A stretch of 64,000 bases of DNA from a virus. Positions 6,463 through 64,000 of the stretch are shown here, piece by piece. Each line of letters opens with the position of its first letter. The first letter of the stretch is position 1. Under the pieces are notes generated by a model. It was not told where the DNA came from and did not search any database. It saw nothing but the letters and a program-made list of their open reading frames with translations. Made by a program: the position numbers and the translations under genes. Where the stretch lies: positions 1-64,000 of the IMG/VR virus record IMGVR_UViG_3300032249_000861; one strand, 5' to 3'.

Positions 6463-6553
6463 AAAAAATCCTCTATATTAGAAAGTAATTGACCGATTTC
6501 CCGCTAATACTATTATCGACAGACCTTGCTCGGAACTTTAGAAATAGCAGAAA

Positions 6554-40938: not shown

Positions 40939-41226
40939 ATGTCAAATTATCAACAACTACTCTACGACGTAGAAACAAAATTTAAAACAACAATGATTGG
41001 CTCATTGGCCAGATTTGAAGAAACATTTGGTCACTTATGGGAAGAAGAAGGGCCTGATCAACAGGAATATTTAGAATCTTGGGAATATACTCGAAATGCT
41101 ATTCTAAACAATGGAAACAAGCAAATGAGAGCAGCTTTGGATGATTTATCAGATGCTTTATTGGGGTCATATAAAACAAAATATACTTATAAGTTCAACA
41201 ACAGGAATAATGGAGATAAACAATGA
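40939..41226 (+). CDS. Hypothetical protein
   Basis: ORF track. Confidence 0.6.
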   Translation: MSNYQQLLYDVETKFKTTMIGSLARFEETFGHLWEEEGPDQQEYLESWEYTRNAILNNGNKQMRAALDDLSDALLGSYKTKYTYKFNNRNNGDKQ

Positions 41227-42131
41227 AGACAAAGACTTTCAAAGCTACTATTGACGGTAAGGAAAGAGAATTTTTAGTTAAGACACCTTCTTTGACCGAT
41301 CAAAGAGAAGGACAAAAGGTTTATAACCAAGCTTTTACAGACGCTATTAAGAGCAAGAGTGTTGTTAGGGCTAAATTGGATGATCTATTAGAAGATCAAG
41401 GACTATGGAATGATGAGAAACAGGCTAAGTTCACAGCACTACAAAGAGAACTATTAGACGGCGAGAAAAAGCTAGCTAAGGGCGGGTTTAGTTTAAACGA
41501 AGCCAAAGACCTTGCTATTAAAATGAAGGGCGTGAGAGACGAAATCAGAGATCTAATCAGTGTTAGAACTTCTTTGGACAATCATAGTGCTGAAGGTCAA
41601 GCTGATAATGCTAGATTTAATTATCTTGTATCAGTATGTGTGGTGTATAGTGATAACAAAGAGCCATATTTTAGGAATATGGAAGATTATTTAAATCGAG
41701 CTACTGAAGAAGTTTCTTTATTGGGTGCTCAGAATTTGGCTAATATGATTTACGGATTGGATAATGACTATGAGACTAATTTGCCTGAAAATAAGTTTTT
41801 GAAAAAGTATAGGTTTGTTGATGACAAACTAAGACTAATTGACAAAAAGGGTAGATTAGTAGATGGTGATGGTAGACTAATTGATAGCAGTGGCAGATTT
41901 ATTGATGAAGAAGGCAATTTTGTTGATAAATATGGCAATAAGGTTACTTCAGACGGAGATTATATTGTTGAGCCACAACCGTTTTTGGACGACAATGGAA
42001 ATCCAGTTGTTCTAGAGGAAGAGAAAAAAGATGCACCAGCAAACACTGAGACACCACCAACACCTCTCCCAGTACAACCAGCAGCACCAGCACCAGAGGC
42101 TCAACCGCCAACTCCTCCAACTAATAGTTAG
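41223..42131 (+). CDS. Probable tail assembly chaperone
   Basis: Directly upstream of the TMP; GRL(I/V)D repeats; Pro-rich tail. Confidence 0.55.
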   Translation: MKTKTFKATIDGKEREFLVKTPSLTDQREGQKVYNQAFTDAIKSKSVVRAKLDDLLEDQGLWNDEKQAKFTALQRELLDGEKKLAKGGFSLNEAKDLAIKMKGVRDEIRDLISVRTSLDNHSAEGQADNARFNYLVSVCVVYSDNKEPYFRNMEDYLNRATEEVSLLGAQNLANMIYGLDNDYETNLPENKFLKKYRFVDDKLRLIDKKGRLVDGDGRLIDSSGRFIDEEGNFVDKYGNKVTSDGDYIVEPQPFLDDNGNPVVLEEEKKDAPANTETPPTPLPVQPAAPAPEAQPPTPPTNS

Positions 42132-42242: not shown

Positions 42243-45200
42243 ATGGCTACAGCTTTTAATTTGACAGCACAACTTAATTTACGCGGTCCAAATAATGTTA
42301 ACAAGATTGTTGCAGACATTAAAAAGCAACTAACTGGTATAACTGCTAATGTTAATTTAAAACTAGACCCTAACGTTGCTAAAAATGTTAAAGCTATTGA
42401 TTATTCGCTAAAATCATTAAATGCTACATTATCTAAAACAACTACAAATGCTGGTTCCGCAGCAGCTGCTATAGCCGCTTTTGGTAAAGCTGTTAATGCT
42501 ATTAGTATAAAAAATGTATCGCCGCAAATTAATGCTGCTGTAGCCAGCATGAATAAGCTAAATAAGTCAAGCAGCAATGTTTCTCAGTCATTAACTGAAT
42601 CAGCAACAGAAATGCAAGAGTTTGGAAAACAAGCAGGATTAGCTATTAGACGTTTTGCGGCATTTAGTGCTGTTACTGGAGTTATCTATAGTTTAAGTAA
42701 TAGTATTACTCAAGGAATTCAAGCATATATAGATTATGATAAAGAACTAGTTCGTTTACAACAAGTTACAGGCGAGACCGCTGGAGGTCTACAATTACTA
42801 CAAGACTCAATTTCTCAACTAGCAACAGGTTTCGGCGTTAGCTCAAAAGAATTAACAACAGTATCAGTTACACTAGCACAGGCCGGTTTAAGTGCTAAAG
42901 ATACCGAAAGAGCCTTAAGAGCACTAGCATTAAGTTCATTGGCCCCATCGTTCGATGATATGAATGAAACTGTAGAAGGTTCTATTGCTTTGATGAGACA
43001 GTTTGGAATTAGTGCTGGACAACTAGAACCAGCTTTAGGTTCCATCAATGCTGTTGCTGCTGCGTTTGCTGTAGAAGCCGATGACTTAATTACTGCTATT
43101 CAACGTACCGGTGGTGTATTCGCCACTGCTAGTAAAGGCGTTAGTGAGGGAACAGATGCTCTTAATGAGTTCATTGCTGTATTTACTAGTGTTAGAGCAA
43201 CTACTCGTGAAAGCGCAGAAACTATTGCTACTGGTTTACGTACTATTTTTACACGTATTCAACGAGGAAGCACCATTGATGCTCTCAAAGAATTCGGCGT
43301 TACTTTAACAGACTCAGAAGGTAAATTTGTTGGAGCGTATAAAGCTGTTCAGTTATTAAGTGAAGGACTGTCTAAAATAGACACAAGAGATATTAAATTC
43401 TCTAGAATAGTAGAAGAGCTTGGTGGTTTTAGACAGATTGGTAAGGTTATTCCTCTTATTCAACAATTCTCTGTTGCACAAAATGCTCTTAAGATAGCTC
43501 AAACAGGACAATCTTCTTTGGCTAAAGACGCATCAACAGCGCAACTATCATTAGCAAATCAAATTCAAAAAGTTCGTGAAGAATTCTTCGCACTATTCCG
43601 TGAAATTGGACAAAGTAAAGGATTCCAGTCATTGCTTACTGGGGTATTAACATTAACAAGAGGTCTAATTAAGCTTGCTGATGTCTCTAAGAGCCTACTT
43701 CCTGCATTAAGTGTTGTACTAGCGTTTAAAGGAGCTAGTGCTTTAACTCAGTTTGCTAGTGGTTTCAGTAAAGGCTTTAGACCTGGCGGCGGCAAACCAG
43801 AAAAAGAAAGACCGCGATTTGCAGATGGTGGACAAGTTAGATACTATGCTAAGGGAGGACATGTTGCTGGTAGTGGAAATTCTGATACGATACCCGCCAT
43901 GCTAACTCCTGGCGAGTTTGTCATAAATAAAAAAGCCGCACGAGCTGTCGGCTCTAAGAATTTAAATAGGATTAATAGATATGCTTCTGGTGGTAAAGTT
44001 AAAGATTTAGTTAATGATCCTAATGGTAAAAAATCTCTTAAAAAGGTCTATGATATAAATAAAGATTTTGATAGTTATGAAGATCCTACAATAGATAGAG
44101 TAGACCTCGACAAAACATATGATCAGTATACACAACAATCTAAACAGATTTGGTTAGAGGCTAATAAAAAATACAAACAAGATTTAGCTCAAGGATACAA
44201 ACCCCAAAAAGGAGACGTCCCCCAATTAGCAAATGCATATATAAAAAGAGAAACTGGTGGACTAGCTCAGAATCTTGGATTCAAAGAACTAAGAGAGCCT
44301 CAGACGGCTAAAAAATTAAATAAAATTCGTGGAGCTTTAGCTGAAAATGAAGTTAAGAAAAGATATAAATTAGGAAATCCTCTCGCTTTACAAGATGGGG
44401 CTGATTTTTATGATGCTAAAAATGACAGATTCGTAGAAATCAAAAATCAGAAAAAACAATTAAAAGATTCTACTCTGATATCAAAAACATTGCTAGCATT
44501 TGCTGCGAGAAAAGGAAACAAGTTAAATAATCAACCAGATTATGTTCCTAGTTTAAAAATTCTTGCTGTTGAAGCTCCAAGCCCAGACAAATATGATGAA
44601 TTTGAAGAAAAAAAACTTGGCGGACCAATTAATAAAAGAGTTAAACAAGCTGTTGACTTCAAGAACCTGCACAAGATTAATGGGTATGCTAAAGGTGGGC
44701 CTATTGCAGCAAATATTACTGATACTACAACAAGCGATGGAGATACATTAAATGTAAATTTTACACCAGAACAAAAACCATTTAATACTTTGAGCAGATT
44801 AGAAAATTGGGATGCTTTTGAAACAGATGATGTTCAAGGTTTCAAAATACCCGAATGGCAAAGAAAATTGGGTAGAGCGGCAGCGAAGGTTACTTCTGAA
44901 GAATACAATAAACAAGATGACAAAGCTTTGAAAGCGTTTAGGTCGTCAAACGGAGCTATGGATAATTATGGTCGCCCAATGTTTAAAGATGATAATTTGG
45001 GGTCAAAATTAAAAAACTTAGGATTAGCTATGCCATATAAAGGTAAAGGCAAAGCTCCTACCAAACAGCTATCAACATGGGGAGACTATAGAAATATTTT
45101 TGGATATGCTCCTTCACAAGCACCAGGATTACAAGGAGAAGAGATATCAGAAGATAAGGCTGTAAAAAAAGCTTTGGGAGGAATGATTCAAAAGTTTGAA

Positions 45201-48200
45201 GAAGGTGGAGTAGCTCAAAGAAAAGTTGGATATATTGATTATGATGTTATAGCTAATGAAGCTAATAAAGATATTGTAGAAAAAGGAATGAAAGAAACAG
45301 GATCTGATGGTCCTAGAATCTATTCAGACTATCTTACCAAATTAGCTGTTAATGCTAGGAAATCTTCTAGTATTCAAAAACTAAGAGCAATCTATGGTGT
45401 TGCTGGTAGTGGTAAAACAACACTAGCTCGCGGTCAAGGAACAGATAATGCTAGACTAAGAAAGACAGAAAGATTTCCAATTCTTAGTCCAGAAGATATT
45501 CAAAAAGCTACTGAAATATTAATCCTAACTAGTAGTGTAAGTCAAACTAAAATGGATGATTTCTTTGGTGATGTTGATAGAGCATATACATTAAGTTCGA
45601 CTACTGATGCAGAAAGAAGCAGAGTAAGGGATCAAAGAGGATCAAGAGATGTTACGGGGATTGGTTTAGAGGGTCGTCAGCCAGGAACTACTATGGGCGT
45701 TTCAGCAGATACTGCTGTTGGAGAGGCTTTATTATCAGATAAACTAGGAGCTAAATCTACAGTATTAGGAAGAAGTGGCTCTGGTAGACTAAGAAGAAAG
45801 AGCGGAAATGAATTAGTAGACATTGTCAAGAAGAGAATTGGTTTTACATGGGGTGGATTTGCCCCAACAACAGCTGGTCATGAATCAATTATGGATGCTG
45901 CTGCTGCTATGGGTATTCCTCCAGAAGACTTTATAGCACTAGTTGGAGCTAACGAAGCCGTAGACGCATCATCTTATCGCACAGCAATATTTGATCAAGA
46001 TTCCAGAGTATTGCTAGCCAAGGCTGGTTTTGGAGCAAAAGGAGCTACTGTACTTCCCAAGCCAAGAGATTTTGAAGTTCCTCAAGGTTTTGATATAACT
46101 CAACAGGGTTCTGATAGAAGACAAGTACTAATTCCCAGCCAAGGTAGTACAGCATTTGTTGCAGATAAAACAGAAGACCAGACAGCAAAATATAGACAAG
46201 CTGGATATGATGTTAAGAACATAGAACGAACCGGTGGTATTAGTGGCACAATGGTTAGAGATTTAATTATAGCTGGAGATATGGCTAAACTTCAATCAGT
46301 ATTGTCTCCTGGCGTATATGATCTTGTCTCGAATAACATAGGAAGAATACAAAATAGAGCTAGTGTTTTACCATCTCTTATAGAACAAGCTCAAAAAGAA
46401 GCACAAGCTGAAATGGGTCAGGTGGATCAACAGATAGAAGCTCTTGGAATCAAGAGAATAGATTCTAAAAAGTTGGAGAGTGACCCAGAATATGCAGCTA
46501 AAGTAGAAGTTCTTAAAGAGTTAAGAGCTAAAAAACAAAAGATCAAATCAGCTGCGGGATTCACCCCATATAAATTATTAGATGCTTTAGCCGAAAAAGA
46601 TCCGCAAAATTATGCATTGGACTTCTCCACATCATCTAACCTGGGTAATGTTCCAGACATGAGGGTCATGGGACAAAACTCACAAGCTTCAATACCAGCT
46701 GGTAGAGTTGCTCAATTAGCTCAAGAAAAAAATAAAAGTATTCAAGACGTTATACTAGAACAGCTAGGCGGATTGGGTGGTCCTGCTGGAGTTAAAAAAA
46801 TACTTGGCATAGGTAGTGGAGATAGAACATTAAGCTCATTATTACAAGCAGGAAATATTAAGGGAGGTAAAGGTCTAGACGAAGCAGCAGACTATGTTAA
46901 CAGAGCTTTAGCCGCTAGGGGTATAAGAGATGCTGCAGAAGCCAAAAGATTAGAGGAGTATCAAGCTAAGGCTCTTCATTTTGGTATTGCTGGTTTATTG
47001 CCAATGGATTACTCAAAAGAATTCGAATGGGATATTGGCGGTACCGATGTTTACGCTACTGCCAGAGGTTTTGGTAGTACGTATTTGGAAGAAGCAAAAC
47101 AAATGCAGAAGGAGTCATCAGAACTAGCTCAAAGATTTGCAGAAAATGTGCAAAATAAAAATATCTTTGGTGGTGGTGAAAAATTGGCTTTTGATTTTGA
47201 CAAAACATTAGTTGAGGATGCAGATATTCTTGATGCTAAGGGCAAGCCAGATATTGCAAAATATTCAAATAGAGAGGCTGTACAAGAAGCTCTCAAAAGT
47301 GCAAGACCAACCAGACTAGCAACTAAATTAAAATCACTCATAGAGCAAGATCCCCCATTTATTAAGAAAACCAGAATACTAACAGCTAGGCCACAAAGCA
47401 CAGCAGACCTTCTTGCACAATCATTACAAAGCTTTGGTCTTCCCTATGCCGAAACAGATATTACTGGAGTTAGTGGTGGCGTTAGTAGCAATATTCCTGC
47501 ATTAAAAGCTGCTAATTTACAGAAAGAAGAGAAACTTATTGATGATAGTTTAGATAATATTATGGCTGTTCGTAAAGCTGGTAAAAAAGGATTTCAATAT
47601 ACTGAACCCAAATCCACAACATCAGAACTAGACGAAAAAATGGGTCAGGGTAATATCGAGGGTGCTATAATAGAAAAAGCTTTGGCTGTTTTGGGTGCTC
47701 CAGTAAGGCCGGATGCTAAACAAAATAGAGCCATAGACTATCCAGACGGTTTAGGTAGTGCATCTCAATTCTTTCCTGGTATTGATCCTGGTATTCCAAC
47801 AGAAGTTAAAAGAACAATTGACGGTAGTAGTTTAGAGAAAGTTAGAGAAGAGATTGGAAGATACATAACAGGAGGAGCCCAAGCTGTTAAATTAGCTAGA
47901 GGTGGAGCCGTTCAAAGCTTTATGGCCGGTGGAGCAGCAACCAAAACCAGAAAAACAAAAGAGCCTTTCGGAACTGGTGAAACAGAATTTCCAACAAGAA
48001 TATCAAAAAAATATGCCGAAGAACAAAAAACTGCTGATGAATTTGCTAAATCTAAATTAGCATGGGATAAGTATCCTAAAGACGAAAGAATAATGGTTGA
48101 CGATACAAAAGTGCAAGAAGCTTATCAGCAACCATTCGATAGAGAAAGATTTGCTTCATCATTCAAAGAAAAAATTAGTCGCGACTCACTATTCCAAAGA

Positions 48201-51200
48201 ATGTCAGATTTTGCTAAGTTTGTAGGACTTCCAGAAGAAGACCTATCAGTAGCATTACCCCTACAATTAGATTTCGGCGCTAGCAAAAGAGGCGGTGGTC
48301 TAGGCATGTTCGCTGCTGCTCAATTTGAAAAAGGAGCAACCGGAATTAGGCCATATGAAGGCTATGATTTATCTAAATTTGGATATGGAGAAAAACAAAA
48401 ACAAGAAGCTTATGGATTAGAGAAGCTTATAACAGCAAAAGAAAAAGAAATAGCAAAGATTAGAAAAACACCAACTGAAACTTATGATGATGGTAGTTTC
48501 TCTTTTGATAGTGAAGCATTCCAGAAAACCAGTATTGAGTTAGATAGCCTTAAAAATAGATTATTTAAACTAAAAGATTTAAAACGTGACGCAGAAAAAG
48601 CGGCACTGTCTGAGCAAAATACTACTTCATCAGCTGCCGGTCGAGGAACTATCAGCTTTGCTTCTTCTATGGGTTACTCTAGCGATACCAAGAACAGCAC
48701 CCTATACCACGAAATGACTCATCAGCTATTTCAAGGACTAAGAACAAAATCAGCAGGGAGTTTTGATAAATATCGAGATAGAGTATCGTCATTATTTTCT
48801 GGAGATAATGATGATTTAGCAGACGCTTTTGACTCCTTAACGGCTGGGGGCGGATATTCTAGTGCTGATGTTGTATATGGTAGAAGCTATAAGTCAAATA
48901 ACTTAAGTCAAATACTTTCGAGCTATTATCGTCAGAATCTTGATTTTTCTAGAAGTGCTGCTACTATTCCCCAAGATACGACAAAAAATCTTGCTAGTTT
49001 AAGTACCCAAAGCACAGCCGCCAAAAGAGCCAGAGAGTATAGACCAATAAATCCTAGAGTTAACGAAGCTTTACTTCAAGCTGGCGATAAGTTTGGAATG
49101 ACTCAAGAGAAGATTGATAGAATGGAAGATAATGGTAAAGAAGAGTTCTTAACAACCTTAATGGAAAAAGCCCCTCAGCTTGATCAAAATTTACAAGGAA
49201 TTTTAGACTCTACTTTAACAGAACTATTGAGTGGAGCTGGAATTCAGAGACAAAAATATGCAGCAGGAAGAAAAGTAGATTACGAATCTGGTGTTGGAGT
49301 ATCACCATTCGGAGGTTCGATATCAAAAAGATTAAGCGAGTCAGTTTATAATCTGCAAAAGGGTACCGGACTAAGTGATCCAGAATTCAATGAGATCAAA
49401 AAGACAGCAGATACATACGGATATAATGAAGAAGAATTTAAAGAATATTTAGCAAAAAGAATACAAGAGAAAAAGAATAAACAGGGACTAAGAGCCAGTC
49501 CATCAGCCTTGGCACAGCAGTTGATGCAACAAAAAACAGTATCAACACCCAAACAGCTAGCATTAGCAGAAACACTAAAGGGTGAGCCAGATGCTGGTTA
49601 TAGACCCATACCAACAGCAGCCGAAAGAATAGCTTCAGATCGAATGGCTGTTCAGAATGCCACAAGAAGATTTGCTAGTGGAGGCACTGTCTCGGCTTTA
49701 GTTAGTAACGGCGAAGCTTATGTTCCGCCAAAAATAGCCAAGAGAATTGGTTATGGTAATCTTAATCGTATGAATCAAGCTGATCGTAACGGGATGAGCA
49801 AGTTCTCTAGCGGTGGTATTAGTGTGTTTAAAGGTCCTGGGACTGGCACTAGTGACAGTATTCCTGCTAATTTACCAGTTGGTAGTTTTATTATTAGAGA
49901 AAAGGCTACGAAGGCTTTAGGTCTTAATAAGGGAGGTGCTGTACCAGCACAAAGATTTGCTACTGGGGGTAGCGTAACAAGCATGATTATGGAATGGTTG
50001 TCATCAGACATGACTGCTGGGACTAAGCCTAAAATGCCTCAAAGACCTGATATTGTTAGTAGGGCTACTGTTACAGCTTCTTCTGATACAACAAAAGAGT
50101 TGGATAATCTAGTTAAATCTCTTAATGCTGTCGGGTTTAGTGCAAAAGAATCTGCAGACATATTGAATAGGGGCGGGCAGGTTAGTTATAAAACTATAGA
50201 AAAAGCTTTGGTTAAAGATATTGAGAGATTAAAAAAATCTACAGCAGGTATAGATCAAATTACTCAAGCAGAAACAACTTTAGCAAGAATTCGTAATCAG
50301 ACAAAAAAAGATGTTGGTAGTAAACAAAAAATGGAGGAAGCTTTCAGAGGATCAGGAAGATCATCCGGCTCTGTGCAGCAAGAAATTTATTCTACAGCCA
50401 TGTCTATGGGCGAACAGAATATAGAAGCAAAAGAAGCTGCGAGAAGAAAGAAAATACCACAAATAGAAAAAAGAGAAAGAAAAAAGCTTATAGAAAGTAA
50501 GCGAGAAGATTTTATTGAGAAAGAATATAAAAATCAAGTAGCTAAAGAACAAAAAACTAAAGGTAGAAAATTAACAAGTACAGAAAAAGATAAAGTTAGA
50601 TCTGATGCAGAGCTTAAGGGAAATACAAAAACTTTTAAATTAACTACAGAAGAAAAAACCAATGTTAAAGCAACAGCACAAGCCAAAACCACATTATCTG
50701 CTGAAGAAAGAACAAAAGAATACAATAAAGCAGCGTTAAGGGCGACAACCTCGGTTACAGGAGCAAGTAAATCAGAATTAGCAGCTAAAAACGTTAAAGG
50801 TTCTGATATCTTAAGATATGCTCAAGAGAGTATGAGAGATCGTAAAACCCTAGCCGAAATGGATAAACAGTTTGTGGCTATGGCAATGGATGAGTATAAA
50901 AATCGTGGCACTGTAAATGGTATAGTTGTTAAGAGTGCGGCTGAAGCTAAAAAAGCTGCTGAAGAGGAGATCTCAAAGAGAAGAGAAGCTATTAATGCGA
51001 GAGCTTCACAGAATGGAGAAAAAGGAGTCGGTGCTGCTGGGTTGAGAGACTATAGAAATAGTCCCATACTTAATCAGATAAAGGGATTTATAAAATCTCC
51101 TGGAAGAGTAATGGGTGGAGTGTCTGTTGCTGCTGGGCTAGCTGCTGGCTCTTCCGATATGATTGCTAAAAATATGTATGATATGAGTACAACAGAGGGC

Positions 51201-54200: not shown

Positions 54201-57200
54201 AGTGGATCTTCAAGATCTGGTCAAAGATCACCAGTTAATAGTAGTTTTAAAGCCGACAATCTAAGCTTTAAAGCGTATTCTAATGCTAGAGAAGAAAAAT
54301 ACTCAAAAAGATACGAAGGCACCAGAGATCGATTCCCTAGAGAAACAGAGAAATTTTCTAGTGGGGGCTTAGTTACTCCATACTATTTACAGGACGGAAC
54401 AGAAAAACCACTATCTAAAAGACCCTTTATGGTAAAGATGGAGAAACCAGAAGACCCTCTTGAGGCTGCTGAACGCCGTCGTGCCCGTGCTCTTAAAGCG
54501 TCCCATCCAGAGATTACTAGAGTCAGACAACCATCTTTGGTTCCTGGGGATCCTAGAGCATTAAGACACAAAGAAAGCTTCTATAGACTAGATGTTAATA
54601 GTGATGGTGTTCTAGATGCAAAAGAAGGCAGACCACATCCTGAACTTGATAGAGATTTAGATCGAAGAATAACACTAGAAGAATGGGACGGAATCGATCC
54701 TGGTGAATTTGACCCAGATGATTCAAGCCATGTTCTGCGAGACAGTAAAGGCAATCCTTTAACTCCTGGACTTATGGGAAGCCCATTTGAAAAAAGGCAT
54801 CGTTCTTTAATGGCTTCTGTTGCTATGGATGAAGAAAAACTTGCTAAGGGTGAACCTTTAGTGGACTCTAATGGAAAACCCATAGACTTAGCAAGTAAAA
54901 GGAAAGAACTAGCCATATTTAATGCTCAGTCTGGTCTATATAATACTAGTCAATCACTTATAGCAAGACAAAAAAATATTGACGATAGTCTAACCAAACG
55001 ATTAACTGGTGGCGGTTCTCTTCGTAATCCTGATAGTTCTTATGCTGTTACGAGAGAATTTAATAAGATTCGTGATCGGAGATCTGCTTTTGAAGAAGAA
55101 AGAAGAGGTCAAAGAGCCAAAGATGAGAACGCAACAGATGAAGAGATATTTGATCGCACAGTAGAAGCCTATGGGCAGGGAGATTCAGATTATTGGCGTA
55201 GTATGGGCGTTACTGAAGCACCAAACTCTTATGATGAATCTAATACTCTGAATTTTATTCGCTCAGGTGATCGTCTTGCAAGCAGAGGAGATCCTTATGG
55301 AGACAAGGCCAGAGCATATATAGACGGATATATCGCATCACAAGGTGCTAGACAACAGCAGGACAGAGTAGATATTGGCATGGGAAGACCTACCATATCT
55401 CCGGACAAAGCTGTAGTAGGTACTCAAGGTCCAGTAGACGATCTTAATTATTTGATAGACCGAAATGAAGTAGGTAGAGCGGTAAAGTATAAAGCAGAAC
55501 AAGCAAAGACTGAGGAAGAGAATAAGCAGAGAGATGATGCTCAGGTAAAACAAGCAGAAAAACAAGCAAGCTTAGAAAAAAGAGATAAAGAACTAGGCAT
55601 AGACACTAGCGGCATTAATCGAGATATATATGAGAGTGGTGGGGGTTTTTCAAATCAGCCAGGAAGTGGCAGAAAAGTTACAGTAGAAGAACAAACACAA
55701 AGAAAAAGAGAAAGGGCTATAGCAGATAGATTTTCGTTCACAGATAAAACAGGAAAATACTCTACTGCTGGTACTATTGATAAGGTTGATTTTGAAAAAG
55801 GTACAGTTAAAATAGCTAAGATGGATCCGAAAACTGGGGAGCCTATTACCAGAACGGTTCCGGTTTTTGCTGGTGGTGAAACAGAAGAAGCGATTAAGGC
55901 TTCTGGTAGAGATCCCAGAAGATTCAAGGTTGGGGAGAAAGAAGAACAAGTATACACTACTGTACCACTAGATAAGCTTAGTGATAAATCTAGAGATAAA
56001 GTTAGATCTTATGGCTTAGAGAAAGAAGCAGACAAAGCTAAGACTGGTGAAAATTTTACAGTTGGCACTAGTTTTGAAGATTATAAAGGTAAAATATTTA
56101 GAGTAGATGAAAAATCTGAAAAAGTTATTGTTCAAAAGGAAGATGGCAAACTAGTTAGTGTTCCTATGGGAATAATAGATCCCGAAACAAAAAATATAGC
56201 ACTAGATCAAGCCAAGACAGCTACTACAGTTACTGATTTAACACAGAAACAGATGGATGCAGATATCGGTAATATTGATTTCACTTCATCATTACCAGAA
56301 CCTCAGGTTCCATTAATTGAGGACTTTACTGATAGAGCAAATGAAGTTCGTCAAGAGACTATGAACAATGCTGCTTTAGAACAGACAAAGATGGATCAGT
56401 TACCGGTGATGTCTGAACCAGTACCAACTTCAGGTACTATTGATCCTCTTACTGGCAAAGTTGTTGGGAATAATGTTTCTATGGACTTGAATCCAGACGG
56501 AACTCGCACTCCAGAACAATTAAACATATTAAACCAACAAGCTACCAGAGATGCAGACAGACGTAATTCTAACGCAAGATACGAGGAGCTTAGAGCTCGA
56601 TCAAAAGCAGAGTCTTCATATGACAGATCATGGTTTGGAGAAAACTGGCCCAAAGAATGGGGAGGAGTATCAAAGCCCGAAAAAAGATTAACAAGAAAAG
56701 AATTAGAAGAACTTGGGGCTATGGAAAGTGAAAGAGGTGTTCCTGCATTATCAAGATTAGGAGCCAACACAAGAGTAGAACAAACAAGGAGAAATGCTGG
56801 GTTAGACGAAGCACAAATTGAAAGTTTGAGTCAACAAAAAACAGAACAGTTTAAAGCTGAACTTGAGAAAAAAAATGACGCAGAAGGTGGGGTGGCTGTT
56901 GGACTAGCTGCTCAAAGAGCAGTAGTTCCATTATTAGCTGGTGCTACCGCTGTTGCTGCTGCGCCTGCTTTAGTTCCAGCAGGAGTAATTGGTGCTGGAC
57001 TTACCATTGCTGGCGGTGTTGGTTTTAGTTTGGGTGCTAATAAACTACAAGATGTGGCATTAGAAGGTACAGATTTTGACAAGAGGCAAAAAGAATTGGC
57101 AGAAAAAAGGCCAGGAGCAACTGCTGTTGGGTCTTTATTACCAGGATTATTAACGGGCAATCCACTGACTGGTGCAACTACTCTGCGACAAGCACTAGCA

Positions 57201-60200: not shown

Positions 60201-63200
60201 AACTTTTTTGGAGAAGCATTCGCTGCCGCCGCACAAGAAGCCAGAGCCATAGAAGCAACAAGGGCTCAGATTGAAACCAACGATAAGTTTGTTGTTGACC
60301 AGCCTGATATGATGACAGCTTCAGAGCTTGACCCAATAACAAGAGCTTCTAGTAGGAGGGTTTGGGGATCTGATAAGGCTTTTGAAAATATGCCCAAACC
60401 CAAAATTTCTAGAGAAAAAGTCAAAGCACTAGACACTGGCGAGCCTGACGAGATGACAGCTTCAGAGCTTACTCCTCTACAGAGGGCCGTTATTAATAAG
60501 TCATTCGGACTTGATTCTGATAAAGGTTTCGAATTGCGAGAACAACTTATAGCTCAAAAAAGAGAAGCAGATATACTTCCAGAAGACTTTTTTCCAAACG
60601 GTTCATCAAGAACAGAAACTCCATTATCTTCAGCTAGAACAGAAGCAGAAGCTAAGAATCCTGGTACCGTATTTGAAGGACAGTTAGAAGCAGCATTAAC
60701 CGATGCTTCTTCTCCAGAAGCTTTAAAAGCTTCTGCAGAAGCTCAACAAAGATTAGCAGCACAAAAATTAGCAGCAAAATCTCCAGAACAAATATCTGTA
60801 GAAAAAACATATGGTCCTTTATATAGAGAAGCTAAAAAAGCTAATGATACAGCGGAGATGGCCAGAATACGATTAGAAGCTAATGCAGAATTTAAGAAAC
60901 GCTCTCAAGAAGCTTCTACAAGATCTGAAGATAAAAAGAACAATTTCCTTCCTGTTATGGGTAGGGTCTTAAAGATAGCCGCCCCAATCGGATCAGCTAT
61001 TGGTTATGGACTAGGATCGTTATTAAGTGGTTCTATGGGCAGAAAAAAAGAAGAACCTCAAGATTTAGCTTCTAGGTTAGAAAATGCTTCTGATCTACAA
61101 GAAGTTTTTGATCTTTTAAAACTAGCAGAAAAAGACAAGATAGGAAACCCGACTAATCCTTTAAGAGAAATAGGCGGATCATCCCCACTTATTGCTAAAT
61201 TACAAAAACTAGCTCCAGAAATATATGGTAAAAAAGGTAGTGACTATTTTAGCTCTCAAGACTTAGCAGCTATGCCGGAAGACGCATATAATGAGAATTT
61301 TCTAGAAAGATTAAAAGATAATGCAACATTCGAGAAGATGAAAAGAGAACAAAAGGTAGCTGAACCTGCTCGCTTAAAGAGTGATGAGGCTGCACGGGCT
61401 ACAACAAGAGATCTTATAACGCAATGGTCTCAAGACTTTGCTATGGCGGGTAATGATGTCCGAACTCCTCCAGGTTCTGATCCTAAAAAAGCTAGAAATC
61501 CGTTAAAAGCCATGTCACGAGAAATGGCAGAAAGAGCACAAGAAAGAAGAAGTGGATTCCCCACAGACGATCAAGGAAACGATCTACAGATAGGCACTAT
61601 GATTCCCGCCCCGATATCGGTTTTAGATCGTACAAAAAATGATGCTGCAGCGATGAGAGAAATTGACGAAAAAGATAATAATGCTGCTCCGATGCTGGAA
61701 GTTAAGAAACCAGTAAAGAAATCTCTTGGGGGTTTAATTTATGCGTCGAAAGGAACCTTAGTAAACTACCAACCTCGTGGAACTGACACAGTACCAGCAA
61801 TGTTAACTCCGGGCGAGTTTGTTGTTAATGCCAGAGCAACAGCAGATAACTACCCATTACTAAAAGCTATTAATAGCGGAACTAACGTTGATACTACTGC
61901 TAATATGAGTAAGGGCGGTGTGGTTTATGCTCAAGAAGGAGCATTAGTACCTAGCTTCGGAATGCATATTCCATCTTTAGATCCAGACAAAAATACTAAA
62001 TTAACCCTATTACCAGAAAGCTCTTTAGATCAAGCAAATACAAAAGAAGCTTTTCGAGAATATGGAAACGCTCGACCTTCCTATCAATCAAGACCACAAC
62101 TACCAAAGCCAACTGTTCAATCAGGATCTTTTAAAGAAGGAGTTCATGATAGAAATTCTGTTATAAAAGATAGTGAATATTCTAGAAGTTTAAAGAGAAT
62201 GGGTATTCCACACGTATCACAGAGTGGTGGATCTAAAACCTATTTGGATCAAAATGGCAGAGAAATTTCAGCAAATGAATTTAAACTTTTACCAGAAACG
62301 TCTTTTAATCATCCAGAATATGCAGTCATGCGTAGCAGAGCAGCTTTTGCTGCTGGAGCTGCTAAGTCTGTTGTTCCTCAAATGGGGGCTACGTCTGGGG
62401 CTATAGCAGGAGCAGCTGCCGGAGCCGTATTAGGACCTCCCGGAGTAATTGCCGGAGGCTTGATTGGAGGTTTGACTGGTGGTATAATGGGATCGGCATT
62501 ACAAGAAACAGCATTAGATATAGCAAATCCAGAGGCTAACGCTATAGCTAATCAACTAATGGATCAAAATCCCGTATCAGCAATGGCAGGATCAGCAGCA
62601 GGAGACATTGCAACAGGAGGATTACTATCATTAGCCTTGCCTTCTATACCAACACCAACAAGGGCTGGAGATTCAATGGTTGGTCCCGGAGGACTAACAC
62701 CAAAACAAATAAAACATGCTGAAAAAGGATTAAATAGACCCATATCAGAAGCGATTACTCCGTTTACAGGAATGAAAGGATTTGGAGGTCGTTATGTTGA
62801 CGGTCCAATAAGTGTTGATCAGTTAGTATATAAATCCAGAGACAACTTGGCTGAGAGTATTCATTACTCTGGGGCAGATCCCAAAACATTTGATTCATTA
62901 ACAACAAGATTAACAGAACCTGTTCCTGGAGCTCTTGGTGATTATTACCAGGGACTAAGCAGGATATCTCCTAAAGCTCCTCCAGAACATATTATTGGAA
63001 CAATAGCTCATGAGGCTGGCCATCATTATCAAACAATGAAGGACCCTACTGGAAGATTCGTAAAAACTTGGATGTCAGATAATAGAGATCAAGCAAGTGA
63101 CTGGATTTTAAAAAGAACATCCTCTCCTCAATATCTTGAAACTGCAACTCCAAGAAACCAGGTGAATTATGGAGTTAATGATATGCTGAGTGGGGATTTT

Positions 63201-64000
63201 TATAAACAGAGACAAATGGAACAATTAAGAAAAGAGTTTGGAGAGGATGGTTTTAAGACTTTATTAGAAGACTCGTTAGCACATACTCTAGGGGCTGGTA
63301 AAAAAGGCATAGCTGGAGATGTAAATTCAGCACTAAGATTTGAGTCTCAAAACTATATTCGCGGCAGAACTGGTGGCAGATATGGCGAAGCAGGACTAGC
63401 ATTTGGAGGCGAAGACCTGTCTCGCATAGATCCCGATATAATGGCAAAGGTTGGAGTAAGAGCTCCACAAACCTTAACAGGTCACGACAGAGTTTTAGAC
63501 GCTATGACAAGATATGGTCAGGATAAGGGTTTTGCATTTCCTAATTTTGTAGATAATGCAGAAGTGTCTGGTAGACAAGAATTTCTTACGTCTATGTTCC
63601 AGGATTTAGGAGGAGCAGATAAAGAAGCCAGAGGATTATCTCAAGGATTAGTCAAATTTATCGAAACTAAGGGTGGAGAAGGCGTAAAAATGACTCCACC
63701 GCCACTTCCTCCATCTCCACCACCACTTCCTGTTAATAGATACGCAAATGGCGGAATGGTCAATATGTCTGAAGGTAACAAGATTCCATCCGAAGTATGG
63801 GCAATAGGTACAAAATATACAAATGTTATGTCTCCTGAAGATTTTGAAAAACGCAAAGTCATTAGACCAAAATTATCTGATGATAGTACCTATGATACCC
63901 CCAAGGTTTTTAAAGACTATCACGAAGCACATAAAAAACCTATTAGTATTGATCCAGCATTACTAGATAAACAATCTTCTTTCTCTAAGTATTTACAGTC
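42243..64000 (+). CDS. Giant tape measure protein / multi-domain polyprotein (>7,250 aa, 3'-truncated)
   Basis: ATG at 42243; TP901-type TMP N-terminus (LAQAG...INAVAAAFAV...AETIATGLRTIFTRI); frame open at every point checked, up to the last codons; its absence from the ORF track is consistent with no stop codon in the window. Confidence 0.9.
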   Translation, partial: MATAFNLTAQLNLRGPNNVNKIVADIKKQLTGITANVNLKLDPNVAKNVKAIDYSLKSLNATLSKTTTNAGSAAAAIAAFGKAVNAISIKNVSPQINAAVASMNKLNKSSSNVSQSLTESATEMQEFGKQAGLAIRRFAAFSAVTGVIYSLSNSITQGIQAYIDYDKELVRLQQVTGETAGGLQLLQDSISQLATGFGVSSKELTTVSVTLAQAGLSAKDTERALRALALSSLAPSFDDMNETVEGSIALMRQFGISAGQLEPALGSINAVAAAFAVEADDLITAIQRTGGVFATASKGVSEGTDALNEFIAVFTSVRATTRESAETIATGLRTIFTRIQRGSTIDALKEFGVTLTDSEGKFVGAYKAVQLLSEGLSKIDTRDIKFSRIVEELGGFRQIGKVIPLIQQFSVAQNALKIAQTGQSSLAKDASTAQLSLANQIQKVREEFFALFREIGQSKGFQSLLTGVLTLTRGLIKLADVSKSLLPALSVVLAFKGASALTQFASGFSKGFRPGGGKPEKERPRFADGGQVRYYAKGGHVAGSGNSDTIPAMLTPGEFVINKKAARAVGSKNLNRINRYASGGKVKDLVNDPNGKKSLKKVYDINKDFDSYEDPTIDRVDLDKTYDQYTQQSKQIWLEANKKYKQDLAQGYKPQKGDVPQLANAYIKRETGGLAQNLGFKELREPQTAKKLNKIRGALAENEVKKRYKLGNPLALQDGADFYDAKNDRFVEIKNQKKQLKDSTLISKTLLAFAARKGNKLNNQPDYVPSLKILAVEAPSPDKYDEFEEKKLGGPINKRVKQAVDFKNLHKINGYAKGGPIAANITDTTTSDGDTLNVNFTPEQKPFNTLSRLENWDAFETDDVQGFKIPEWQRKLGRAAAKVTSEEYNKQDDKALKAFRSSNGAMDNYGRPMFKDDNLGSKLKNLGLAMPYKGKGKAPTKQLSTWGDYRNIFGYAPSQAPGLQGEEISEDKAVKKALGGMIQKFEEGGVAQRKVGYIDYDVIANEANKDIVEKGMKETGSDGPRIYSDYLTKLAVNARKSSSIQKLRAIYGVAGSGKTTLARGQGTDNARLRKTERFPILSPEDIQKATEILILTSSVSQTKMDDFFGDVDRAYTLSSTTDAERSRVRDQRGSRDVTGIGLEGRQPGTTMGVSADTAVGEALLSDKLGAKSTVLGRSGSGRLRRKSGNELVDIVKKRIGFTWGGFAPTTAGHESIMDAAAAMGIPPEDFIALVGANEAVDASSYRTAIFDQDSRVLLAKAGFGAKGATVLPKPRDFEVPQGFDITQQGSDRRQVLIPSQGSTAFVADKTEDQTAKYRQAGYDVKNIERTGGISGTMVRDLIIAGDMAKLQSVLSPGVYDLVSNNIGRIQNRASVLPSLIEQAQKEAQAEMGQVDQQIEALGIKRIDSKKLESDPEYAAKVEVLKELRAKKQKIKSAAGFTPYKLLDALAEKDPQNYALDFSTSSNLGNVPDMRVMGQNSQASIPAGRVAQLAQEKNKSIQDVILEQLGGLGGPAGVKKILGIGSGDRTLSSLLQAGNIKGGKGLDEAADYVNRALAARGIRDAAEAKRLEEYQAKALHFGIAGLLPMDYSKEFEWDIGGTDVYATARGFGSTYLEEAKQMQKESSELAQRFAENVQNKNIFGGGEKLAFDFDKTLVEDADILDAKGKPDIAKYSNREAVQEALKSARPTRLATKLKSLIEQDPPFIKKTRILTARPQSTADLLAQSLQSFGLPYAETDITGVSGGVSSNIPALKAANLQKEEKLIDDSLDNIMAVRKAGKKGFQYTEPKSTTSELDEKMGQGNIEGAIIEKALAVLGAPVRPDAKQNRAIDYPDGLGSASQFFPGIDPGIPTEVKRTIDGSSLEKVREEIGRYITGGAQAVKLARGGAVQSFMAGGAATKTRKTKEPFGTGETEFPTRISKKYAEEQKTADEFAKSKLAWDKYPKDERIMVDDTKVQEAYQQPFDRERFASSFKEKISRDSLFQRMSDFAKFVGLPEEDLSVALPLQLDFGASKRGGGLGMFAAAQFEKGATGIRPYEGYDLSKFGYGEKQKQEAYGLEKLITAKEKEIAKIRKTPTETYDDGSFSFDSEAFQKTSIELDSLKNRLFKLKDLKRDAEKAALSEQNTTSSAAGRGTISFASSMGYSSDTKNSTLYHEMTHQLFQGLRTKSAGSFDKYRDRVSSLFSGDNDDLADAFDSLTAGGGYSSADVVYGRSYKSNNLSQILSSYYRQNLDFSRSAATIPQDTTKNLASLSTQSTAAKRAREYRPINPRVNEALLQAGDKFGMTQEKIDRMEDNGKEEFLTTLMEKAPQLDQNLQGILDSTLTELLSGAGIQRQKYAAGRKVDYESGVGVSPFGGSISKRLSESVYNLQKGTGLSDPEFNEIKKTADTYGYNEEEFKEYLAKRIQEKKNKQGLRASPSALAQQLMQQKTVSTPKQLALAETLKGEPDAGYRPIPTAAERIASDRMAVQNATRRFASGGTVSALVSNGEAYVPPKIAKRIGYGNLNRMNQADRNGMSKFSSGGISVFKGPGTGTSDSIPANLPVGSFIIREKATKALGLNKGGAVPAQRFATGGSVTSMIMEWLSSDMTAGTKPKMPQRPDIVSRATVTASSDTTKELDNLVKSLNAVGFSAKESADILNRGGQVSYKTIEKALVKDIERLKKSTAGIDQITQAETTLARIRNQTKKDVGSKQKMEEAFRGSGRSSGSVQQEIYSTAMSMGEQNIEAKEAARRKKIPQIEKRERKKLIESKREDFIEKEYKNQVAKEQKTKGRKLTSTEKDKVRSDAELKGNTKTFKLTTEEKTNVKATAQAKTTLSAEERTKEYNKAALRATTSVTGASKSELAAKNVKGSDILRYAQESMRDRKTLAEMDKQFVAMAMDEYKNRGTVNGIVVKSAAEAKKAAEEEISKRREAINARASQNGEKGVGAAGLRDYRNSPILNQIKGFIKSPGRVMGGVSVAAGLAAGSSDMIAKNMYDMSTTEGQGKAAKTSAAIQSSGTILSTGLAAASQMATIPVIGPYVAALTAVGTAAAAAADYFYDFTGAQKAATVEFERSVRAKEIGIAMDGLDRAFQNFEKDMGNIDLQNALEKSLGGASSLQIKDNMAERDNAKAEFSLKNRSWSDIFSGNFKGSAKMDALQQGAMDSEMSQKITPIADKAMSLYEKQISSGKSIQDIVNNVRTGNKEAGAAGFAVAASVNPKLWSELEAKIAKSGDTSEQNREKIQKEIAARELLTNVQLQSIERMAKLNKEMDAADRAGRRLAETFEHIGETIDQSIQRMQRESQIRQAQANDRVEARRGNAGFDERAVNNRNVGVLTSPKAYQNDPGRIEEAIRAGTTGMSPELAQKMAGGARLEATLPNVMRNAVSSELKTNANLDLAEAADAARKKGTEAIQRSGLSEADQKVAIDKLNTKLNSEQEKAQKEGGDSPRQKVDFFIDSVSELGPEIANIFGNAGKRLDDIIQARQGIYDTFAKNLQAASEAAKKAREFFSKARDIRYNAGMDLREAQTGVGESYAEAKAKSDSSIARLTGGVTDPQAIGRNIDALTARRDQQMKARDAAASDPNLTPKQQEDAAIKFAKDIQATNNALNDNREALDKLANSAEVAQKALDEVKNIRGLQQDRENFVNQLLTNTPAEADKLNQSFIRLQRNLSGGLNNASNQRDARNAFNDTLRRTGNLREATRAGNTVLADQRKQTLQLMQDPGFRGMMTLNMKNQGMNDQQIDKKFRDQESMLMQQMAVESGMINNPMVRQALAAKQDPNADPAMKRAAEQFLQSTGLQAKATEEQGRLELANVQSLLITSTDDLRTSIDALTTSINASLGPDGERVPGAVGPMVPVPAGARGAGPIGRPIRRATGGKVNTQYASTGKLIDFSPKGTDTVPAMLTPGEFVVNAKATADNYPLLKAINNGTNLVGNTAMMSKGGVVYLDNGGLIDEFRRIDSNSSNFLEVGEIDLKMMQLLDTDKDNKVSFREYSARAKSGGSGSSRSGQRSPVNSSFKADNLSFKAYSNAREEKYSKRYEGTRDRFPRETEKFSSGGLVTPYYLQDGTEKPLSKRPFMVKMEKPEDPLEAAERRRARALKASHPEITRVRQPSLVPGDPRALRHKESFYRLDVNSDGVLDAKEGRPHPELDRDLDRRITLEEWDGIDPGEFDPDDSSHVLRDSKGNPLTPGLMGSPFEKRHRSLMASVAMDEEKLAKGEPLVDSNGKPIDLASKRKELAIFNAQSGLYNTSQSLIARQKNIDDSLTKRLTGGGSLRNPDSSYAVTREFNKIRDRRSAFEEERRGQRAKDENATDEEIFDRTVEAYGQGDSDYWRSMGVTEAPNSYDESNTLNFIRSGDRLASRGDPYGDKARAYIDGYIASQGARQQQDRVDIGMGRPTISPDKAVVGTQGPVDDLNYLIDRNEVGRAVKYKAEQAKTEEENKQRDDAQVKQAEKQASLEKRDKELGIDTSGINRDIYESGGGFSNQPGSGRKVTVEEQTQRKRERAIADRFSFTDKTGKYSTAGTIDKVDFEKGTVKIAKMDPKTGEPITRTVPVFAGGETEEAIKASGRDPRRFKVGEKEEQVYTTVPLDKLSDKSRDKVRSYGLEKEADKAKTGENFTVGTSFEDYKGKIFRVDEKSEKVIVQKEDGKLVSVPMGIIDPETKNIALDQAKTATTVTDLTQKQMDADIGNIDFTSSLPEPQVPLIEDFTDRANEVRQETMNNAALEQTKMDQLPVMSEPVPTSGTIDPLTGKVVGNNVSMDLNPDGTRTPEQLNILNQQATRDADRRNSNARYEELRARSKAESSYDRSWFGENWPKEWGGVSKPEKRLTRKELEELGAMESERGVPALSRLGANTRVEQTRRNAGLDEAQIESLSQQKTEQFKAELEKKNDAEGGVAVGLAAQRAVVPLLAGATAVAAAPALVPAGVIGAGLTIAGGVGFSLGANKLQDVALEGTDFDKRQKELAEKRPGATAVGSLLPGLLTGNPLTGATTLRQALATRAASGATEAALGAGIRGATSGGDFGTVQDVGMDFISGAILPSPNFGGKGSKNYNIPEGPAKPKTEAVALKELAKTVKAEQRAITEENVLDGAEILATKRKQEEVRRAAQEKQRVRDEAEAVKESGREKAVFDVFTIGGRLSDDNIASALKSAKEKTVTGTKLLTGKVTGKPRGDLIEQNPTLASRLGVSTPGLDAVKNGQNITAKDLVAKLKDEGFSEEYAKKVSRERTLKMVSDLATERSKRKDESIQQVASEYKDAVTGVEDPNKRAKIKAKFQTRLQKELSSIVSDTNDRAEAFDSGMTVQELKKQRAAEAQAKDKAESDKLIQEFDSTLGSSKPITIDNPPIGEPLDLGVDPLAPITSARDNAATTAASTKPISTEEQSPVGETTIPQPNKDAADTVTAGTKPVDAATVAAKNQTVVKAAEQENTSSLQTSAIPQPKPYNPTDYPIMDSIMRGGKNGHYGPMGTTNITGKQNIHGISGWKTRLIPKDDASAAKIKEFLDTHPDIGSYKLALNEGPVPVFSVYFKKGTKDEALSFAQASEKGLKDSLDPRLYQGADTLLEGTNISARFDARDLKNKSASSIIDRQLENSPFSRGFLKAEELNLQILPSNTAPGSTASRAMPNITAGTRGVPDTGYVDWLKTKKFLAKDPKKIASLDAEIQRATNVADDWLKENMSDIYSASAERTARESTGPQQQAVVETATRDATSRPTKSGFVRDKSLPINEVDDLASAGFGVISPDQEVESVIRGARENFLGSLTKPAALLQPETYQKYADQLLELEKSGKIKITKGASFGTSGQPSIFVGKPENVDILAKAFESETARTRETRGSTSNEFKETVGKALGYSKDSIALHILEKDWDKAGLDIDTIQDRLQVSRGAAARYMVSEINKAKEQASVEQGVKESINPPIKDPITGDEFELGPGDDFQLGGLGEDPLAPAPIIKPENVLPEARAESEARRAETATSRTKSSIVDEDEFVLGDMEDDSTVVAVEPDDGSNFFGEAFAAAAQEARAIEATRAQIETNDKFVVDQPDMMTASELDPITRASSRRVWGSDKAFENMPKPKISREKVKALDTGEPDEMTASELTPLQRAVINKSFGLDSDKGFELREQLIAQKREADILPEDFFPNGSSRTETPLSSARTEAEAKNPGTVFEGQLEAALTDASSPEALKASAEAQQRLAAQKLAAKSPEQISVEKTYGPLYREAKKANDTAEMARIRLEANAEFKKRSQEASTRSEDKKNNFLPVMGRVLKIAAPIGSAIGYGLGSLLSGSMGRKKEEPQDLASRLENASDLQEVFDLLKLAEKDKIGNPTNPLREIGGSSPLIAKLQKLAPEIYGKKGSDYFSSQDLAAMPEDAYNENFLERLKDNATFEKMKREQKVAEPARLKSDEAARATTRDLITQWSQDFAMAGNDVRTPPGSDPKKARNPLKAMSREMAERAQERRSGFPTDDQGNDLQIGTMIPAPISVLDRTKNDAAAMREIDEKDNNAAPMLEVKKPVKKSLGGLIYASKGTLVNYQPRGTDTVPAMLTPGEFVVNARATADNYPLLKAINSGTNVDTTANMSKGGVVYAQEGALVPSFGMHIPSLDPDKNTKLTLLPESSLDQANTKEAFREYGNARPSYQSRPQLPKPTVQSGSFKEGVHDRNSVIKDSEYSRSLKRMGIPHVSQSGGSKTYLDQNGREISANEFKLLPETSFNHPEYAVMRSRAAFAAGAAKSVVPQMGATSGAIAGAAAGAVLGPPGVIAGGLIGGLTGGIMGSALQETALDIANPEANAIANQLMDQNPVSAMAGSAAGDIATGGLLSLALPSIPTPTRAGDSMVGPGGLTPKQIKHAEKGLNRPISEAITPFTGMKGFGGRYVDGPISVDQLVYKSRDNLAESIHYSGADPKTFDSLTTRLTEPVPGALGDYYQGLSRISPKAPPEHIIGTIAHEAGHHYQTMKDPTGRFVKTWMSDNRDQASDWILKRTSSPQYLETATPRNQVNYGVNDMLSGDFYKQRQMEQLRKEFGEDGFKTLLEDSLAHTLGAGKKGIAGDVNSALRFESQNYIRGRTGGRYGEAGLAFGGEDLSRIDPDIMAKVGVRAPQTLTGHDRVLDAMTRYGQDKGFAFPNFVDNAEVSGRQEFLTSMFQDLGGADKEARGLSQGLVKFIETKGGEGVKMTPPPLPPSPPPLPVNRYANGGMVNMSEGNKIPSEVWAIGTKYTNVMSPEDFEKRKVIRPKLSDDSTYDTPKVFKDYHEAHKKPISIDPALLDKQSSFSKYLQ

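Follow-up and report, generated by a model that had tools for sequence, protein, structure and literature searches.

The DNA considered here comprises positions 1 to 64,000 (the window, 64,000 nucleotides, one strand, 5' to 3') of the IMG/VR virus record IMGVR_UViG_3300032249_000861, a linear contig of 110,025 bp with a CheckV completeness of 73%. From position 42243 onwards lies an open reading frame (ORF) of 7,574 amino acids (aa), along which short motifs ending in two glycines recur. These motifs, and the module to which they belong, are the subject of this study. The ORF encodes a giant tape measure protein (TMP) of the TP901/PhageMin_Tail type, because residues 188-382 match PF10145 PhageMin_Tail (79.2 bits against a cut-off of 33.2, E 4.9e-22) and the gene sits in a tail module, with terminase and portal genes upstream and large receptor-binding-type proteins with FGE-sulfatase-like and FN3 domains downstream.

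42243..64000 (+ strand), continuing past the window end to record position 64967: giant TMP ORF, 7,574 aa
42804..43388 (+ strand): PF10145 PhageMin_Tail (TP901-type TMP core), aa 188-382, Pfam match

In a protein search, 387 relatives with lengths of 3,988-12,691 aa were retrieved. They come from independent metagenomes, which rules out an assembly artefact as the source of the length of the protein. Freshwater and soil metagenomes are among the sources of this family, and one relative is part of a Sphingobacteriia metagenome-assembled genome. Counts in relatives refer below to the 120 listed of these 387 (4,017-7,872 aa), and the BLAST coverage comparisons use 119. The identical 7,574-aa protein is also present on a contig of 200,684 bp, and the complete genome may be considerably larger. 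The C-terminal tail (aa 7373-7574, record 64359-64964) matches PhageMin_Tail a second time, weakly (E 0.003-0.014), a hint that the end of the protein might derive from a duplicated or second TMP. The two ORFs that follow the gene (record 64988-71021) encode proteins of 1,176 and 827 aa. They carry FGE-sulfatase-like and FN3 domains, and a role at the tail tip or in receptor binding is probable. Upstream of the gene lie two small ORFs (40939-41226 and 41223-42131).

The original prediction, made from the letters of the window, had listed 21 pentapeptides of the type [FYLMKR]xxGG as putative processing signals or cassette junctions. All 21 stand in frame, at exactly the nucleotide positions given for them in ORF 42243..64967. 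One of them is in the right place and lacks the double glycine, as it ends in GR; a degenerate copy is the probable reading, since relatives have KYAAGGKVDY or KFAAGGKVDY in what looks to be the same element, by a regular-expression match without alignment.

49257..49271 (+ strand): degenerate motif YAAGR

As written, the loose pattern is unspecific, with 47 matches in the protein against the 21 listed. As a baseline for enrichment, the 7,574-aa protein was shuffled 300 times with its composition preserved, and no shuffle reached any of the observed values. The loose pattern occurs 16.4 +/- 4.0 times in the shuffles, and the strict form [FY][AS]xGG is found 11 times where 0.5 are expected. The predicted pairing was recovered as 8 pairs of motifs 7-12 aa apart, against 0.21 in the shuffles. 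The same holds for the preceding basic residue, since K or R stands directly before 13 of 25 curated sites at a background of 13.7% (p = 6e-6). Five further motifs lie beyond the window end, in the rest of the ORF. In the other ORFs of the 110-kb record, the strict motif and the module described next are essentially absent.

The motifs are the Gly-Gly flanks of a module of ~70-90 aa, of which the protein has five full and about six truncated copies. The motifs themselves stand; their reading as independent linker signals does not, since a single conserved module, folded or docking, has them as its flanks. Its N-terminal flank consists of one or two [FY]-A-x-G-G-[VI]-V elements about 9 residues apart. 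The centre is P-G-x-G, followed by a D-T-V-P-A-M-L-T-P-G-E-F-V core (with x for its second T in the general form). In the layout of the module, the flank elements count as strands and this core as a hairpin. The C-terminal part is a short helix ending in L-x-x-I-N (L-x-x-x-N generally), after which come one to three [FY]-[AS]-x-GG. The consensus at the motifs is [KR]-[FY]-[AS]-x-G-G-[VIL]-[VI], and the flank logo from 552 module copies in the 120 relatives is [FYK]-[AS]-x-G-G-[VIL]-[VI]-[Y]. The full copies cover aa 520-592, 2516-2582, 3853-3942, 6488-6571 and 7290-7376, the last one beyond the window, with profile independent E-values (iE) of 5e-30 to 6e-17. The first copy comes after a hydrophobic stretch at aa ~470-510, and the last ends 198-202 aa before the stop (median 147 aa in relatives). 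Residues 2473-2520 form a full-length degenerate copy. The orphan motifs are truncated module copies: at aa 789-822, the helix and the C-flank alone remain; at aa 975-990 and aa 1873-1898, the N-flank pair or triple alone is kept (GG-x-I-Q-K-F-x-x-GG), and the GG-x-I-Q-K-F-x-E-GG element of aa 975-990 recurs at the edges of cassette C3 in relatives. In the following lines, C with a number denotes a cargo cassette, and the coverage steps are those of the BLAST comparison of the next section.

43800..44018 (+ strand): module copy 1, aa 520-592; FADGG/YAKGG pair, D-T-I-P-A-M-L-T-P-G-E-F-V core, helix, YASGG; iE 5e-30
44607..44708 (+ strand): truncated module, aa 789-822; KKLGG, helix part, YAKGG; C1/C2 border; iE 0.06; coverage step +19 at aa 796
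45165..45212 (+ strand): orphan N-flank pair KALGG..FEEGG, aa 975-990; C2/C3 border; coverage step +17 at aa 977
47859..47936 (+ strand): orphan triple YITGG/LARGG/FMAGG, aa 1873-1898; C3/C4 border; coverage step -20 at aa 1902
49659..49988 (+ strand): degenerate module FASGG...FSSGG, then module copy 2 (aa 2516-2582, ending LNKGG/FATGG); border of cargo region 1 and the conserved helical core; iE 0.03 and 6e-17
53799..54068 (+ strand): module copy 3, aa 3853-3942, RATGG...MSKGG/LDNGG; border of the core and cargo region 2; iE 1.6e-19; coverage step -23 at aa 3948
54351..54380 (+ strand): orphan KFSSGGLV, aa 4037-4046, after an EF-hand-like cassette; coverage step -9 at aa 4048
61704..61955 (+ strand): module copy 4, aa 6488-6571, KSLGG...MSKGG; iE 6e-19
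63735..63767 (+ strand): orphan NRYANGGMV, aa 7165-7175; coverage step +10 at aa 7167

Cargo cassettes and their borders

The module is present in all 120 giant relatives, with 3-10 copies in each, and the proteins share one framework. It is composed of a TMP core of ~520 aa, a module, cargo region 1, a module, a helical core (~1,210-1,283 aa; ~1,270 aa here), a module, cargo region 2, a module and a C-tail of ~150 aa. The cargo regions are variable, and at each border of scaffold and cargo cassettes stands the module, whole or truncated. Domain borders were judged by BLAST homology breakpoints, as Pfam sees almost nothing in cargo: in searches with the whole protein and with ten inter-motif segments, the cargo matches were all sub-threshold. 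Coverage by the 119 relatives is complete on the scaffold and falls to 4-80 of the 119 in cargo, with large steps at aa 590, 796, 977, 1902, 2467, 3948, 4048, 6486, 6573, 7167, 7288 and 7377. Each of these steps lies within 15 residues of a motif.

The motifs had been predicted to fall between domains, and cargo indels in relatives to end at them. The ends of the BLAST high-scoring segment pairs (HSPs), counted without matches that are mostly module-to-module, agree with both. Within 15 aa of a site lie 36% of the 1,670 HSP ends, against 8% for circularly shifted sites (0/2000), and the breakpoints in the 119 relatives concentrate at motifs. The orphan motifs alone attract 12% of the HSP ends, against 3% when shifted (16/2000), which per site is four times as often as at other GG dipeptides. 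On the side of the relatives, breakpoints at a motif amount to 31% against 11% with the loose pattern and to 18% against 4% with the strict one.

The cassettes differ in their distribution among the 119 relatives, with C1 in 41, C2 in 37, C3 in 69, C4 in 44 and those of cargo region 2 in 7-22. Most cassette edges bear a motif whatever the neighbour, in 63-96% of cases (such as 52/54, 30/35, 53/66, 33/36 and, for the C-edge of C3, 92/98 relatives), as compared with 20% of random windows. Exceptions are C5 at its C-edge (15/60) and C8 at its N-edge (11/33), which are not clearly above the random windows. Motif-free stretches extend over aa 4041-6496 (2,455 aa, in cargo region 2) and aa 988-1877 (889 aa). 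Because such long stretches have no motif, the delimited units are multi-domain cassettes and not single domains. The motifs mark module edges and cassette junctions, a conclusion in which confidence is high. In the original interpretation, the part concerning junctions for domain shuffling is therefore well supported, and the part naming the proteases is not, as discussed below.

Other observations concern the content of these units. Cassette labels such as 'REase-like' and 'SNase-like' are readings of short motifs, without significant profile matches. The helical core (aa 2583-3853, 49989-53801) is conserved in 119 of 119 relatives, and its flanks vary. It includes a hydrophobic Gly/Ala-rich stretch at ~aa 2955-3040 and may be the measuring or channel-forming part. 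Cassette C3 (aa 991-1873, 45213-47861) has sub-threshold cytidylyltransferase-like matches (PF01467, PF16581), a P-loop and a DxDxT-type motif; by motif reading, this block of 69/119 relatives would be kinase/nucleotidyltransferase/HAD-like. EF-hand-like calcium-binding loops are located at 54069-54353 and at ~aa 4110, with PF00036/PF13202 just below the cut-off, and some relatives bear precomputed EF-hand annotations. Short in-frame tandem peptide repeats are found in cargo region 2 (60296-60470, 59950-59996), e.g., two D-x-M-T-A-S-E-L units 141 nucleotides apart.

The module in other tape measure proteins

The module is not confined to giant proteins. When 1.84 billion representatives were searched with its profile, at least 14,410 proteins (50%-identity clusters) matched at E <= 1e-3, with 3,440 at E <= 1e-10, and the top 150 matching clusters have 3-11 module copies each. 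Ordinary TMPs have one module, located after a hydrophobic or Gly-rich segment and ~90-140 aa from the C-terminus, and many PHROG TMP profiles match it in their last 5-15%. In IMG/VR, the module arrangement recurs in 80 loci, and it stands 86-137 aa from the stop in 20 of the 31 loci with a stop in reach. In 78 IMG/VR loci, the 40 aa upstream and the 86 aa downstream of the module are free of ORF boundaries. In an alignment of 77 module sequences, D, P, A, L and G are invariant, and GG, M, E, V, L and N are near-invariant.

Among studied phages, lambda gpH matches the module profile at residues 732-797 (23.8 bits), with FATGG and YATGG as flanks, and the TMP of JBD30 matches it at residues 1016-1069 (21.7 bits). 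Two module copies are present in the TMP gp16 of mycobacteriophage Douge (PDB 8zdo), outside the modelled residues 1658-1699. No solved structure covering the module was found, and no Pfam family lies over it; in lambda gpH, residues 702-797 (the Gly-rich stretch and the module) are uncovered. PF09718, a lead from the ESM Atlas, was rejected as the module family, as it maps to gpH 627-701, upstream of the module. A new Pfam-type family model could be built from the module alignment. An AlphaFold2 (AF2) monomer of the module, predicted from the 77-sequence alignment, has a pLDDT of 61.8 and a pTM of 0.27, with the GG flanks as coil.

Cleavage, docking and the candidate proteases

The only TMP cleavage site mapped so far is that of T5 pb2. 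The protein is cut after R1127, as mapped by LC-ESI-TOF-MS (PMC10038345). The cut sequence reads F-V-P-R | A-E-G-G-M-M-Y. In its 1,219 aa, pb2 has five GG dipeptides and two [AS]xGG, one of which starts at P1'; the chance of this is ~0.002, and it was noticed post hoc. The order along pb2 is two transmembrane (TM) helices, a ~43-aa segment anchoring TMP* in the opened hub, the cut and a released fragment of 92 aa. In lambda, a C-terminal peptide of ~14 kDa is removed from the glycine-rich region of gpH, on assembled tails before head joining (PMC12617516). The fragment masses fit a cut anywhere from ~aa 710 (14.6 kDa) to F733|A734 (12.5 kDa), and this interval lies at or just before the first A-x-GG of the module. 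In JBD30, TMP residues 1022-1066 are predicted to form a hook of a beta-hairpin and two helices, and the authors speculate on a cut at its C-terminal edge, a PeptideCutter guess (PMC11445458). These hook residues correspond to the module core. In lambda and phiTE, the bulk of the TMP is present in six copies and its C-terminal fragment in three, a symmetry mismatch which suggests widespread TMP cleavage. For sipho- and myophages in general, the suspicion is that TMPs are cut near their C-terminus (PMC11972413, PMC12617516).

A mechanism may be proposed along these lines. In a canonical TMP, the core is followed by a hydrophobic segment, then by the module and by a ~100-aa hub-plugging tail, and the module would separate the tape (TMP*) or channel part from the small released C-terminal piece (T5 pb2C, lambda gpHC). 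In the giant TMP, an insertion of ~6,800 residues would separate the first module from the C-tail, each new border having received a copy of the module. The released piece would have expanded in this way to a series of enzyme cassettes, every one still bounded by such a copy. The protein might be cut, or at least hinged and docked, at the elements, either during ejection or already in the assembled tail. If the analogy with T5 (R|A-E-G-G) holds, the scissile bond would be just N-terminal to [AS]-x-G-G. The cutter could be a host enzyme or an assembly-dependent self-cleavage, and would be neither an internal HExxH peptidase nor the prohead protease.

That the module is a TMP processing or docking element, reiterated as punctuation between exchangeable cargo cassettes, is considered somewhat probable. 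The narrower proposal, in which the chain of the giant TMP is actually cut at the motifs as candidate processing sites, is tentative: it is a fair conjecture from the precedents and falls short of being probable. Several points weigh against it. Cassettes of up to 2,455 aa have no internal motif, and the strong conservation of the core is explained no less well by a role in binding or folding than by cleavage. T5 pb2 showed no profile-level homology to the module in hmmsearch and hhalign comparisons, and the T5 precedent is thus one of tetrapeptide and layout only, noticed post hoc. The gpH cut site in lambda has not been mapped, and both site and catalyst have been unidentified since 1983 (PMC12617516). 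The AF2 monomer is too poor to inform on the accessibility of the motifs or to support fold searches. In the record (73% complete), no JAB/MPN, NlpC/P60, C39 or ClpP was found, and the only signal of an HK97-type prohead protease (PF04586, S78) is weak and below the cut-off. Nor is there a lambda gpK-like JAB/NlpC protein among the ORFs following the TMP gene. As regards the features of viral polyproteins, conserved residues at a repeated site are present, and a cognate protease was not found in this 73% of the genome.

The main rival of cleavage is a non-cleaved docking or hinge element, which is possible though rather doubtful. The elements would then be purely structural or serve assembly, as docking hooks or regularly placed attachment or hinge points on a very long chain that stays intact; the beta-hairpin and helices, with their Gly-Gly turns, would attach to the baseplate hub, to the lumen of the tube or to the tail assembly chaperone, or oligomerise the TMP. 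The highly conserved core with its invariant residues and the retention of the copies at the protein level are in line with such a role. So are the hook fold predicted by the JBD30 authors, the anchoring of TMP* in the opened hub by the equivalent T5 region and the lack of a protease in the record. However, each chain carries 5-11 elements, for which only a single set of hub sites is available, and the borders of cassettes retain truncated elements without hairpin and helix. In addition, T5 is cut directly at A-x-GG, and the TMPs of lambda and T5 are indeed cleaved in this region.

Cleavage could also be taken further, with the module as a universal self-contained maturation element that is cut before [AS]-x-G-G without a dedicated protease, either by self-cleavage on assembly or ejection or by a ubiquitous enzyme of the host. 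This is regarded as unlikely. If it is true, the module gives a testable prediction for lambda gpH, i.e., a cut at or near F733|A734, and the giant TMPs would be true viral polyproteins that the tail delivers and that release their enzyme cassettes into the host one after the other.

The proteases originally named were the internal HExxH peptidases and the prohead protease, taken to be the product of ORF 17698-19254. That either of them performs the cleavage is now very improbable. Two HExxH motifs are present in the protein, and zincin-like peptidases have been proposed to process polyvalent proteins (PMC5512222).

48708..48722 (+ strand): HExxH 1, HEMTH, aa 2156-2160, in cassette C4 (C4 in 44/119 relatives)
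63009..63023 (+ strand): HExxH 2, HEAGH, aa 6923-6927, in cassette C7 (C7 in 7/119 relatives)

However, just these 44 and 7 relatives have the two cassettes. HExxH is absent altogether from 61 of the 120 relatives, yet their motif load is similar, with a mean of 7.4 strict motifs per protein against 9.2 in the others, and the single-copy TMPs with the module have no peptidase. As for the prohead protease, the cut of lambda gpH precedes head-tail joining and is out of its reach (PMC12617516). Pfam and PHROG searches with ORF 17698-19254 gave no protease signature, and a coiled-coil-like match only. The weak PF04586 signal is located elsewhere, at 35284-36027 (best 35395-35538, E 0.011), outside ORF 17698-19254, just upstream of a 417-aa ORF (36085-37338) and far from the portal gene (15485-17683). 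Double-glycine leader or ubiquitin-like GG processing was also considered and rejected: no C39 or JAB partner was found in the record (73% complete), and T5 is cut before A-x-GG, not after GG.

The elements might instead be recombination hot spots only, that is, coding stretches that provide DNA homology for cassette exchange and have no protein function. The presence or absence of cassettes does change at the elements. Nevertheless, this possibility is remote. Module copies within the gene have 72-79% DNA identity, with differences mainly at third codon positions and no long identical tracts, and the peptide is conserved. Selection therefore acts at the level of the peptide, and the copies have diverged too far in DNA to favour homologous recombination inside the gene. 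Moreover, the same peptide consensus is present in thousands of unrelated single-copy TMPs. Finally, chance or low-complexity Gly-rich sequence has a negligible probability of being behind the motifs. The protein does hold 84 GG dipeptides and 8.4% Gly, but the enrichment over shuffles is at least 20-fold, the flanking residues are fixed and the motifs are conserved in relatives.

Significance and comparison with known systems

The module has no Pfam family, yet it occurs in lambda gpH, in JBD30 and in at least 14,000 clusters, and it offers a concrete, mutable sequence for lambda and T5. The giant TMPs represent a large family of tail proteins, so far uncharacterised, that swap cassettes and number hundreds of members in metagenomes. 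If their elements are cut, they would be the first tail-lumen polyproteins delivering enzyme sets into the host. If not, the elements still define a grammar of cargo exchange and can help to annotate and parse giant TMPs. No description of giant TMP polyproteins or of a TMP GG motif was found in the literature.

The polyvalent proteins surveyed by Iyer et al. 2017 (PMC5512222) may resemble the giant TMP in uniting many effector-like domains in one injected polypeptide, in their HExxH domains and in their proposed release by processing. The mosaic cassettes fit this idea; the effector-domain content found here consists of sub-threshold Pfam matches only (cytidylyltransferase-like, P-loop and EF-hand type) and two HExxH motifs. 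In contrast, their carrier is of the head-packaged MuF type and not a TMP, no reiterated junction motif was described for them, and the survey never mentions tape measure proteins. The TMPs of mycobacteriophages (TM4 and relatives) also have cargo domains inside the TMP, and the module occurs among them, in two copies in Douge gp16. They differ in having one or two small motifs where the giant TMPs have 4-10 cassettes, and no junction role has been reported.

Phages with a single element are comparable in architecture. In lambda gpH, as in the giant TMP, a hydrophobic/Gly-rich stretch precedes the module homologue (732-797, with FATGG and YATGG), a hub-binding tail of ~70-120 aa follows, and the protein is cut in this neighbourhood (PMC12617516). 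Unlike the giant TMP, gpH has one copy and no cargo. The hook of JBD30 likewise matches the module profile and is a single copy. T5 pb2 shares with the module-bearing TMPs the succession of TM helices, ~43-aa hub anchor, cut and released C-terminal fragment, with A-E-G-G right after the cut, and the released fragment pb2C is enzymatically (muralytic) active. It differs in the lack of profile homology, in having a single site and in the size of the released piece, 92 aa against thousands. Taken together with these systems, the element of the giant TMPs would extend known TMP processing to a reiterated, cassette-delimiting form.

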